A stretch of DNA of 51,292 nucleotides, taken from NCBI GenBank assembly GCA_045648645.1, contig JAZROH010000065.1:1-51292 (forward strand), read 5' to 3'. Under the pieces are notes generated by a model. The model was not told where the DNA came from and ran no database searches. It saw only the letters and a program-made list of their open reading frames with translations. The DNA comes from Clostridia bacterium (GTDB taxonomy: Bacteria > Bacillota > Clostridia > UMGS1883 > UMGS1540). Every line of letters starts with the position of its first letter. Positions within the stretch are counted from its first letter, which is position 1. This document shows, piece after piece, positions 22,256 through 47,595 of the stretch. The position numbers and the translations under genes are program-made.

Positions 22256-22267
22256 AGCCCCTCTGTA

Positions 22268-22456
22268 TCCCTGCGTTGTACGTTAGTCGGAGTATATATT
22301 TTAGCCAACACTAAAATGTAAGGGAGGCAAAGCGTCTCTGTGGTGTGTAGGCCCCCCGCCCGAAAGGCCGGTATGAGGGTAACCCGTAAGCAGAGAATAT
22401 GCCACCCACCTGCAAAGCAGGTTAAAATTTTGCTGTCAGACGGCAAACGCGGGGGA
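22268..22456 (+). ncRNA. ssrS: Probable 6S RNA
   Basis: About 190 nt whose ends pair (TCCCTGCGTT / AACGCGGGGGA); contains CCAACACT...GGGA and CCCACCTG...GCAGGTT segments typical of Bacillota 6S RNAs; followed by a hairpin. Recognised by eye, no covariance model run. Confidence 0.72.
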
Positions 22457-22468
22457 ATAGAACGCAAG

Positions 22469-45660: not shown

Positions 45661-45736
<76 letters not shown>

Positions 45737-45778: not shown

Positions 45779-45884
45779 GCTGTAAATCTCTAACGAGATT
45801 TACAGCATATCGAGTTTGAACGAAGTGAAAACATATCGAATTTACGAAGTAAAGATATCGAGCAAACAAAGTTTACATATCGAC
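45779..45884. repeat. Hairpin plus ATATCGA short-repeat array with mini-hairpin spacers
   Basis: 12-bp stem GCTGTAAATCTC/GAGATTTACAGC, then ATATCGA at 45807, 45833, 45855 and 45877. Confidence 0.8.
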
Positions 45885-45918
45885 GCTAGGTCATTTTGCT
45901 AAAAAATTATAAAAAATA

Positions 45919-45947
45919 TTGATTAAATAAGGAAAATGTGGTATTAT
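45919..45947 (+). promoter_or_regulatory. Putative sigma-A promoter of the structured RNA
   Basis: TTGATT-N17-TATTAT with TGTG extension; predicted start ~45954. Confidence 0.65.
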
Positions 45948-45953
45948 AAATAT

Positions 45954-46115
45954 GCTAAACAGATTTAATAATTTTATAATGCGGTGTTATCTTTATTTTT
46001 TTGCGGGCATTTTATGCCCTTATTTGTCGTGCTCAATCATTATGAATTTGATAAAAATGCGAACTTCATTTGATTGAGTGAGTAAAGATAACCCATTCTA
46101 TTAAATCTGTTTAGC
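45954..46115 (+). ncRNA. Candidate structured ncRNA / cis-regulatory leader (family not recognised)
   Basis: Perfect 17-bp closing stem 45954-45970/46099-46115 enclosing three further helices. Confidence 0.6.
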
Positions 46116-46138
46116 GACTATCGGAGTTTGCGTTTTTT

Positions 46139-46167
46139 ATGCGTCTGCTTCGGTAGGCGCATTTTTT
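46139..46167 (+). terminator. Intrinsic terminator between the structured RNA and the downstream genes
   Basis: ATGCGTCTGC-TTCG-GTAGGCGCAT followed by a T-run. Confidence 0.8.
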
Positions 46168-46225
46168 ATTTAGGAGGTGTTTTTACAGGATTTTATGCAG
46201 AAAATAACAGAAAGGAGGGAAGAAA

Positions 46226-47155
46226 ATGAAATTTTGCACAAGGTGCGGGAATCAGTTGACGGATGATGCGGTTTTTTGTCAAAAATGCGGAGAGAAAGAC
46301 GCAACTGCGGAAAATTCTATTGCCCCAAATACTTCACAAATACATAACGAATCTTTGATTTTTGAGAATGACGGGGCAGATGCGCCGAGACTTAGAACGA
46401 GCATGAAAATATGGATGACGCTTTCATTTGTTTTGGCATTTGTTTTTGCAATCGGCGCGACAGCTGATATATCGATGATGGCAGGGGTGTGCTTATTTGG
46501 CATTTTGGGACTAATGTTTCTGTTTCTGGCAAAAACCCCGAAAGGTCCTGCGCGAATTTTTTCAAAGGCAGAATGCTTTAAGAGAACAAACGGTATTTCT
46601 AAAGGTGTTTTTGTCGGCATAAGTGTTACCTTGTCGCTTTGCTTGTTTTCAGGAATTTTACATGTTTTTGATGGAAATACAACGAGCGGTAAAGAGGACG
46701 GAAGTAAAGCGAAAACAGCTGTGAGTGTTGCGGTAAAGCAAGAAAAGGCAGCAGATAAAACAGAACCGAAAATCCCAGAAGAATTTGCAGCGGAATGCCC
46801 AATAGCTGTTTCGGCATCTATGTATGATAATATTATCGGTTTTCCGGAACTTAAGTGCATGATCAAAAACAAAACGGACAAAGAAATAGCAGCAATTCAA
46901 TTGTATTTCTTGCCCCGAGATGTTTATGGGGAAGAAGCAGATGGCATTTTCGCACAAAACAAATTGCAATGTGATACACCAATTGCTGCAAATGGAACGG
47001 ATACGGCGGTCTGGCAGATGATAGACCAAAGTATTAAATCAGGTGATTTGTATGTATACAGCGTCTATTTTTCTGATGGTACGGAATGGGGAGACAGAAA
47101 TGCATCGAAAAGTAAGATTCAAGCATATGCAATGCAAACACAAGTTAGCTATTAA
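46226..47155 (+). CDS. Zinc-ribbon-domain membrane protein with an extracytoplasmic C-terminal domain (DUF5780-like, tentative)
   Basis: N-terminal CTRCG...FCQKCG, three TM segments, C-terminal ...VYSVYFSDGTEWG; AGGAGG RBS. Confidence 0.8.
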   Translation: MKFCTRCGNQLTDDAVFCQKCGEKDATAENSIAPNTSQIHNESLIFENDGADAPRLRTSMKIWMTLSFVLAFVFAIGATADISMMAGVCLFGILGLMFLFLAKTPKGPARIFSKAECFKRTNGISKGVFVGISVTLSLCLFSGILHVFDGNTTSGKEDGSKAKTAVSVAVKQEKAADKTEPKIPEEFAAECPIAVSASMYDNIIGFPELKCMIKNKTDKEIAAIQLYFLPRDVYGEEADGIFAQNKLQCDTPIAANGTDTAVWQMIDQSIKSGDLYVYSVYFSDGTEWGDRNASKSKIQAYAMQTQVSY

Positions 47156-47526: not shown

Positions 47527-47546
47527 ACGATTTTATAGTAAGCAAG

Positions 47547-47595
47547 CAGGTATGTTAAGGGCAACGCATGCGTCATCCCTTGACATACCTGTTTT
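47547..47595 (+). terminator. Intrinsic terminator
   Basis: CAGGTATGTTAAGGG/CCCTTGACATACCTG stem followed by TTTT. Confidence 0.8.

Follow-up and report, generated by a model that had tools for sequence, protein, structure and literature searches.

An uncatalogued, multicopy RNA of gut Clostridia, a probable attenuator with two mutually exclusive predicted folds

The RNA family described here is an uncatalogued leader RNA of gut Clostridia. Sequence comparison supports two complete and mutually exclusive folds, one that would let transcription read through into the downstream genes (ON) and one that would stop it (OFF). The reading we prefer, to which we give a probability of roughly 0.4, is that the attenuator, which would consist of RNA alone, is shut when its nascent 5' arm is captured, with a 3' half released from an earlier transcript as the most likely captor. 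That the leader is a transcription attenuator at all is probable, and trans self-capture as its input is held with about half of that confidence.

The element was analysed in a window of 51,292 nucleotides (the whole stretch of DNA presented above), and its parts are listed in Table 1. In the predicted ON fold the 5' and 3' arms form a rod (P1 to P4), strand K holds segment L, and the linker and segment S occupy the loop and 3' strand of the terminator, which is thereby blocked. In the OFF fold derived from the same comparison, L is the partner of S, the 3' arm forms hairpin P5 on its own, strand b and the linker form hairpin H, and the terminator is present. The OFF fold is a three-way junction of the 3' half alone, and the 5' arm, which is the partner of the 3' arm in the ON rod, takes no part in it. 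Hairpin H carries a six-base, U-turn-like loop, and the three loop bases that follow the U are complementary to bases 1-3 of the RNA.

Table 1. Parts of the attenuator element and its downstream genes in the window.
Feature	Position	Strand	Remarks
Sigma-A-type promoter	45919..45947	+	-35 at 45919-45924, extended TG at 45939-45940, -10 at 45942-45947; predicted start 45954
5' arm	45954..46050	+	P1 strand a (45954-45970), 5' strands of P2 and P3, side hairpin, strand K (46042-46050)
Side hairpin followed by U-rich tract, inside 5' arm	46005..46026	+	Candidate pause site
Apex segment L	46051..46067	+	Partner is K in ON (P4) and S in OFF; contains one bulged base
3' arm	46068..46106	+	Paired with 5' arm (ON) or self-folded as hairpin P5 (OFF)
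P1 strand b (46107-46115) and linker c (46116-46122)	46107..46122	+	Together make hairpin H (OFF)
Segment S, with U-run at its end	46123..46138	+	Partner is L in OFF (anti-antiterminator) and the terminator loop in ON
Antiterminator	46118..46156	+	46118-46127 pairs with terminator loop and 3' strand (46147-46156)
Intrinsic terminator	46139..46168	+	10-bp UUCG hairpin and U-tract
Cargo gene 1, 309 aa	46226..47155	+	N-terminal zinc ribbon (PF13240, 2e-07); putative membrane segments (hydrophobic stretches)
Cargo gene 2, 115 aa	47179..47526	+	Hydrophobic protein, no assigned family
Inverted repeat 3' of cargo gene 2	47544..47594		Probable end of the read-through transcript

An earlier note on this DNA had described a sigma-A-like promoter, a 17-bp closing stem with helices nested inside it (45986-45997/46081-46092, 46005-46019 and 46030-46039/46071-46080) and a UUCG-capped terminator; the helix coordinates are right, and both promoter and terminator were found. 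A single promoter-like site is not above chance (7 found against 7.1 expected in 3.5 kb). The predicted start, which the note had placed on the first base of the closing stem, agrees with the spacing from the -10 box to the stem throughout the family, which is exactly 6 nt in 155 of 201 copies, and this fixed spacing gives independent support for the first base of P1 as the predicted transcription start. Upstream of the closing stem a -10 box is present in 196 of the 201 copies, the TG in 179 and a -35-like box in 178, and sense promoters score over a threshold of 10 in 183. Between the terminator and position 46226 no promoter was found, as the note had also proposed; the best site there scores -7.5, compared with 15.2 for the real promoter. 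The plus strand of 45950-46175 folds at -73.4 kcal/mol (z -7.4, with none of 200 shuffles as good) and the minus strand at only -56.4, with a similar z. One point needs correction: when the full transcript is folded, the terminator is predicted not to form, since 46118-46127 takes up its loop and 3' strand. The note also overlooked the multicopy family, the antiterminator, the long helix between apex and S, and the second complete fold.

The Rfam 15 scan of the window at gathering thresholds gave no family over the element, in agreement with the view that this structured RNA is uncatalogued, and the best overlaps at relaxed thresholds reached about 20 bits, far below threshold. Elsewhere in the window Rfam identified a tRNA (45661-45733) and a 6S RNA (22265-22459, 97.6 bits) and nothing else. 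In 20 homologue loci no match was found to the Rfam 15 families (T-box, riboswitches, 6S, SRP, tmRNA, RNase P, C4, skipping-rope, Gut-1 and others). A DNA search for homologues, one of the checks proposed in the earlier note, turned up several copies both here and in relatives. A covariance model was built from the 3' part of the element with only the terminator pairs encoded. Since 22 candidates were scored per genome, all copy and genome counts are lower bounds: the model identified at least 21 copies in this genome and matched at least 15 of 22 genomes of the family and at least 42 of 151 sampled genomes of the class Clostridia. A draw across the phylum gave matches in 2 of 151 genomes, both in the same class. 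A pattern scan identified at least 120 stretches, and the 80 matches listed were all from Clostridia, nearly all of them gut or rumen metagenome assemblies. Three sequence patterns matched 0, 3 and 0 viral contigs, and the 3 score identically under the model; in phage and plasmid collections there was one partial phage match and no plasmid match. An association with phages or plasmids was rejected, as matches in viral and plasmid collections are rare.

For the statistics two model alignments (102 and 107 hits) were merged, and 2 duplicates, 3 truncated or deleted copies and 3 rows in which P1 was not found were removed, which left 201 copies, 106 of the long type and 95 short. The second alignment takes in the seed and pattern-derived loci and is therefore biased for L:S, so the main pair counts were taken from the first alignment (102 hits), which is free of such loci. 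Three damaged copies were seen (L025:231-367, L079:1419-1537 and L087:2487-2603), one without the apex segment and two with a broken or displaced terminator, and these are useful natural mutants. The element also occurs in tight head-to-tail arrays of 2-4 units, with no genes between them and a promoter for each unit, and 13 of 23 neighbour pairs are 48-68 nt apart. Examples are L085:1824-2690, L200:1031-1639 and L254:2421-2775, whose units are diverged and carry a promoter and a terminator each.

Covariation, which the earlier note had named as a check, was found, and the comparison supports two whole folds. P1 (a:b) has many compensatory changes across the 201 copies, with the limit that strand a was located by best complement, so that its pairing is partly by construction and at least 4 rows look mis-assigned. 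Helix L:S is about 16 bp long with one bulged base and adjoins the terminator. In the 102-hit alignment it pairs at 92.5% of positions compared with 86.1% after shuffling and at most 65% in slid controls, and it has 148 two-sided changes compared with 40 after shuffling. The apex hairpin K:L is better with its own than with swapped partners in 176 of 201 copies, with no single pair significant on the tree. The part of L that K:L covers depends on the type, being the 3' half in long copies but the A-run in short ones, and a toehold is left either way: the A-run is open and the 3' half paired in 90 of 106 long copies, and the reverse is found in 59 of 95 short copies.

The antiterminator pairs at 90% in its five core pairs and at 69% in the outer three (the 5' part). 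Its own partner gives -9.8 kcal/mol compared with -7.5 for swapped partners and is the better one in 162 of 201 copies, and three of its eight pairs are significant on the tree; its covariation is modest. The antiterminator is stronger where an ORF is close and weakest where there is none (medians -11.4, -9.4 and -7.9; p 0.036, with copies that are non-independent). Several other pairings were tried and rejected. An antiterminator made of L and the 5' strand of the terminator pairs at 74.6% compared with 74.5% after shuffling, with nothing on the tree or in swaps, and L with the terminator 3' strand pairs at 82.7% in both cases. No gain over swapped partners was seen when strand a was paired with the terminator or K, or when the terminator 5' strand was paired with b, K or S.

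Hairpin H, formed by b and the linker, pairs at 94.5% compared with 82.7% after shuffling. All five of its positions change on the same tree branches (p <=0.003), and all four pairs are present in 154 of 201 copies. In copies whose linker departs from strand a, its pairing with b is kept at the two inner pairs of H (38 of 40 and 56 of 59 cases). Thus the linker tracks b through base pairing and does not simply repeat a. At the outer two pairs the linker pairs with b in only 23 of 47 and 9 of 34 cases in which it differs from a, and in the window copy, whose H is degenerate, these outer two pairs are absent. The H loop has a UNR motif in 195 of 201 copies, in bases that are also constrained by P1, and is closed by G-A in 89 and by U-G in 84 of the 201. 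U-turns are often closed by a sheared G-A pair, according to a passage of PMC4105743. P5 is better than shuffles in 196 of 201 copies and better than swapped halves in 182. H and P5 are possible only when the 5' arm is off the 3' arm, and selection on both therefore implies that the 3' half does exist, in some state, apart from the 5' arm.

The predicted fold of the intact window copy is ON. Folded alone, the 3' half formed L:S in 185 of the 201 copies, H in 166 and the terminator in 200, and the 3' half of the window copy alone gave a z of -4.7. The folding program is pseudoknot-free, so that L:S formed on top of an intact rod, an arrangement that would permit termination as well, lies outside the model. 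In an arm-blocking model applied to 101 of the 201 copies, 0, 15, 25 or 40 bases or the whole of the 5' arm were blocked. L:S was then present in 2, 3, 19, 36 and 89 of the 101 copies, and the terminator in 52, 34, 47, 57 and 90, respectively. The terminator is thus already favoured at equilibrium in 52 of 101 intact copies. In pseudoknot-free modelling the OFF fold would require that the whole 5' arm is gone, as the apex:S helix rises from 2 to 89 of 101 copies. For the window copy the terminator probability is 0.01 when intact and 0.93 without the 5' arm, and the H probability is 0.23 even with the 5' arm removed.

Two other inputs to the same attenuator have to be weighed against these results. 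The first is a cis switch of the pyr type, in which S would reach the apex of the intact rod as a pseudoknot, termination would be the default, and a protein, a ligand or the speed of the polymerase would block L:S; H and P5 would then be a later refolding or decay state. We consider this doubtful, though it has several points on its side. L:S, the antiterminator and the terminator all covary, half of L is open as a toehold in both subtypes, L:S is far stronger than K:L (-17.8 compared with -6.7), the invariant U-run in S could be a pause, and up to at least 21 copies in a genome resemble a regulon. However, it leaves the conservation of H, its U-turn-like loop and P5 unexplained, as all of these need the 5' arm to be absent. 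The few conserved bases outside the pairings are the bulge, one G and A/U runs; pairings account for nearly all conservation, and there is no clear ligand pocket. In addition, no regulator gene was found to recur beside the copies, and their cargo is incoherent, with no common pathway.

The second is a host factor that strips or coats the nascent 5' arm in cis, such as an RNase J-like 5'-to-3' nuclease, a cut at the apex or an RNA-binding protein, and the leader would then report nuclease or chaperone activity. A host factor would need the identical two folds, the arm is AU-rich with a candidate pause, and the apex is an invariant A-rich stretch. We regard it as improbable all the same. It would have seconds to act on 40-100 nt, and 15 or 25 nt blocked were insufficient in the model (L:S in 3 and 19 of 101 copies). 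Apart from its first bases, which are paired, the arm also shows no conserved motif to which a factor could bind, and the U-turn-like loop would be unexplained.

The position of the element in front of genes was surveyed in the 186 copies with at least 600 nt of downstream DNA. An SD-led ORF begins within 70 nt of the terminator in 109 of these, with a promoter-like site between the two in only 1 of the 109; in 44 the ORF is further off, 17 have none, and 16 are directly followed by another copy. The downstream genes of the homologues, which the earlier note had suggested tabulating, differ from copy to copy and comprise varied surface genes and small accessory genes. Among 60 downstream proteins, Pfam identified 6 BspA-type LRR proteins, 6 SLOG, 2 zinc-ribbon, 2 AbrB/MazE-like, 2 AMP-binding and 2 with a copper amine oxidase N-terminal domain, and 24 are without a Pfam family; Ltp, TerB, Band 7, NlpC/P60 and glycosyltransferase are single cases. 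The type III antitoxin suggested in the note found no backing, as none of the 60 proteins belongs to the ToxN, AbiQ or CptN families and PADLOC gave partial results in 3 of 37. The C-terminal part of cargo gene 1 gave no family, with leads under 0.9 only.

Of the note's two proposals, the attenuator for the downstream genes is the one that stood. The independent sRNA is left only as a rival, namely an independent non-coding RNA gene whose product, perhaps a protein sponge, would adopt two conformers and whose downstream genes would be passengers expressed by leak. The gene-less tandem arrays with a promoter for each unit, which control of cargo does not explain, favour such a gene, as do the 17 of 186 copies without an ORF within 600 nt. 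It is unlikely nonetheless, because a stand-alone RNA has no use for a covarying antiterminator that is weakest in the ORF-less copies, and 108 of the 109 closely coupled genes lack a promoter of their own.

A DNA-level element (a MITE, an attC-like site or a single-stranded DNA hairpin), for which promoter and terminator would be incidental, was also considered. It would fit with the multicopy, patchy occurrence among relatives (at least 15 of 22 family genomes), the perfect terminal inverted repeat and the absence of the element behind polC in 10 relatives. We think it highly improbable for several reasons. First, a flanking direct repeat of at least 3 nt is present in only 4 of 201 copies, with no target-site duplication. 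Second, the promoter lies outside the repeat at a fixed spacing, and the G-U pairs and the terminator function on one strand only. Third, the sequence of the repeat varies freely with compensation and has no invariant recombination core. Lastly, no recombinase gene was found to recur beside the copies.

Several observations were made on the surroundings of the element. In 10 relatives (L274-L283) none had the element within 1.5 kb behind polC, and this region is rearranged, with tRNA-Ser, with tRNA-Thr in either orientation, or with no tRNA; a shared empty site is therefore not definable. The absence on the polC side in relatives, together with a G+C content of 40% for the cargo here compared with 49% for polC, suggests that the window copy heads a small accessory islet behind tRNA-Thr. 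Between the terminator of tRNA-Thr and the promoter of the element lies an array (45779-45885) of a perfect 12-bp hairpin and then four short repeats at a spacing of 22-26 nt; its assignment to Gut-1 was rejected, as it is absent from 11 Gut-1 matches in this genome. Directly after the terminator there is a strong ribosome-binding-like hexamer (46172-46177) without a start codon at a usable distance, possibly a remnant of an earlier cargo gene, and cargo gene 1 has its own ribosome-binding-like site near 46212. A small cysteine-rich protein of about 70-120 aa recurs behind the element, often after tandem copies (L051, L071, L083, L205, L227, L247 and L249), and the members scanned have no Pfam or NCBIfam family. 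AbrB-type small regulators also recur as cargo, several behind tandem copies (L005 (G000:C52), L058, L169 (G000:C78), L029 and L261). Just upstream of the element an ORF family of about 120 aa recurs (L010, L011, L027, L074, L077, L167 and L207), which resembles the four-helix-bundle family.

In our preferred reading, capture of the nascent 5' arm, a lone transcript would zip its rod from the apex downward and tend toward read-through. The freed 3' half of an earlier transcript may grip the triphosphate 5' end of a nascent one by the U-turn-like loop of H and zip along the length of the captured arm, possibly assisted by a pause after the side hairpin. The nascent 3' half, left without its partner, would then take the OFF fold and transcription would terminate. 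The outcome would be a copy-specific negative feedback that damps expression as the RNA accumulates, with cargo made when earlier RNA is absent, as on arrival in a new cell or on restart after dormancy or RNA decay. Capture is computed to be downhill by a median of 20 kcal/mol. Bases 1-3 of the free 5' arm have exposures of 0.83, 0.79 and 0.72, compared with 0.67, 0.58 and 0.54 with the rest shuffled. A hairpin with a U-tract is present in the 5' arm of 64 of 106 long-type copies compared with 14 of 106 shuffles, and could hold the polymerase. Cross-pairing of paralogues is rare (8 of 91 reach 80% of the energy of their own duplex), and this genome's 21 copies differ from one another in their first nine bases, with two rows probably mis-assigned.

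Other sources of a 5'-arm partner were looked for. An antisense promoter scoring over 10 was found in 4 of 201 copies compared with 7 of 201 shuffles, and the frame from a possible start at -2 has a median of 9 codons, similar to other frames; an attenuator of the leaderless, leader-ORF or ribosome-mediated kind was rejected on these unremarkable frame lengths. Thus there is neither an antisense promoter nor a leader ORF, and the sole RNA complementary to that arm is each copy's own 3' half, which favours self-capture. Reading of a tRNA 3' end by the H loop in the manner of a T-box was also rejected, as the third base of the loop varies freely.

An extension of capture is a self-propagating RNA state, in which the OFF 3' half of each captured transcript would capture the next, as in a hybridisation chain reaction, and read-through transcripts would close as inert rods. 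We consider it rather unlikely. If true, it would give each locus a protein-free heritable ON/OFF state, addressed by the first bases of the RNA, and a phase-variation-like expression of surface proteins with the DNA unchanged.

Rfam lacks this family, a regulatory RNA that is common among uncultured Clostridia of gut and rumen, and the RNA would place surface proteins, lipoproteins, SLOG and AbrB-type proteins under its control. The comparison names the exact base pairs of both folds, so that purified polymerase and short RNAs are enough to test the mechanism. Should the RNA itself be the input, the element would be a feedback device of natural origin, portable and orthogonal, that exists in hundreds of variants, and it might also act as an RNA-only memory in surface-protein variation.

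The element can be compared with several known systems. Type III toxin-antitoxin and AbiF modules have the layout promoter, structured RNA, terminator and gene, with tandem RNA units. Here, in contrast, no toxin family lies behind the RNA, the cargo is varied, and each unit has its own promoter and terminator. In the pIP501 and pT181 attenuators read-through is the default, and an RNA that binds the nascent leader by a U-turn loop favours the terminator. However, these use a counter-transcript with its own promoter and control a plasmid rep gene, and here there is no plasmid match. In the pyr attenuators of Bacillus subtilis an anti-antiterminator, an antiterminator and a terminator compete, and the element shares this three-tier competition of helices that ends in an intrinsic terminator. 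It differs in having no PyrR-binding loop and no pyrimidine genes, in an antiterminator that takes the loop and 3' strand of the terminator and not its 5' strand, and in an anti-antiterminator that is locked by a rod of about 45 bp. The reference titles of PMC7430163 include the pIP501 U-turn, and its references name the Bacillus subtilis pyr attenuators.

According to a passage of PMC4825925, the P4 CI RNA is processed out of the leader in which it lies and brings about premature termination through pairing with sequences on either side of itself, upstream and downstream, and IsrK of Gifsy-1 competes with its own cis copy. P4 CI (seqA/seqC) and IsrK, as presented there, are therefore leader-derived RNAs, cut from or ending within the leader, that act in trans on the same locus. 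As with P4 CI and C4, the segment proposed to act in trans, here a 3' half with its own conserved fold, is complementary to its own leader (the 5' arm) on the same strand. In contrast to P4 CI and C4, the copies are chromosomal, up to 21 orthogonal ones in a genome, with varied cargo. In contrast to P4 CI and IsrK, the whole 3' half complements the whole 5' arm, and the terminator and antiterminator are of the classic intrinsic kind. No C4 family match and no phage replication or antirepressor genes were found at the copies. In the literature searched, no paper contained four motif strings of the element or another description of it, and the searched parts of the supplements of PMC8040213 and PMC10690425 gave no match. 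The meeting of the U-turn-like H loop with the 5' end of the RNA has the geometry of RNA-OUT meeting the 5' tail of RNA-IN in IS10, as described in PMC4737173; RNA-OUT comes from the opposite strand and blocks translation, whereas here the loop is on the same strand and the output would be termination. With attenuators in general the element has in common a terminator between promoter and gene, a gene without a second promoter, and an antiterminator that excludes the terminator.
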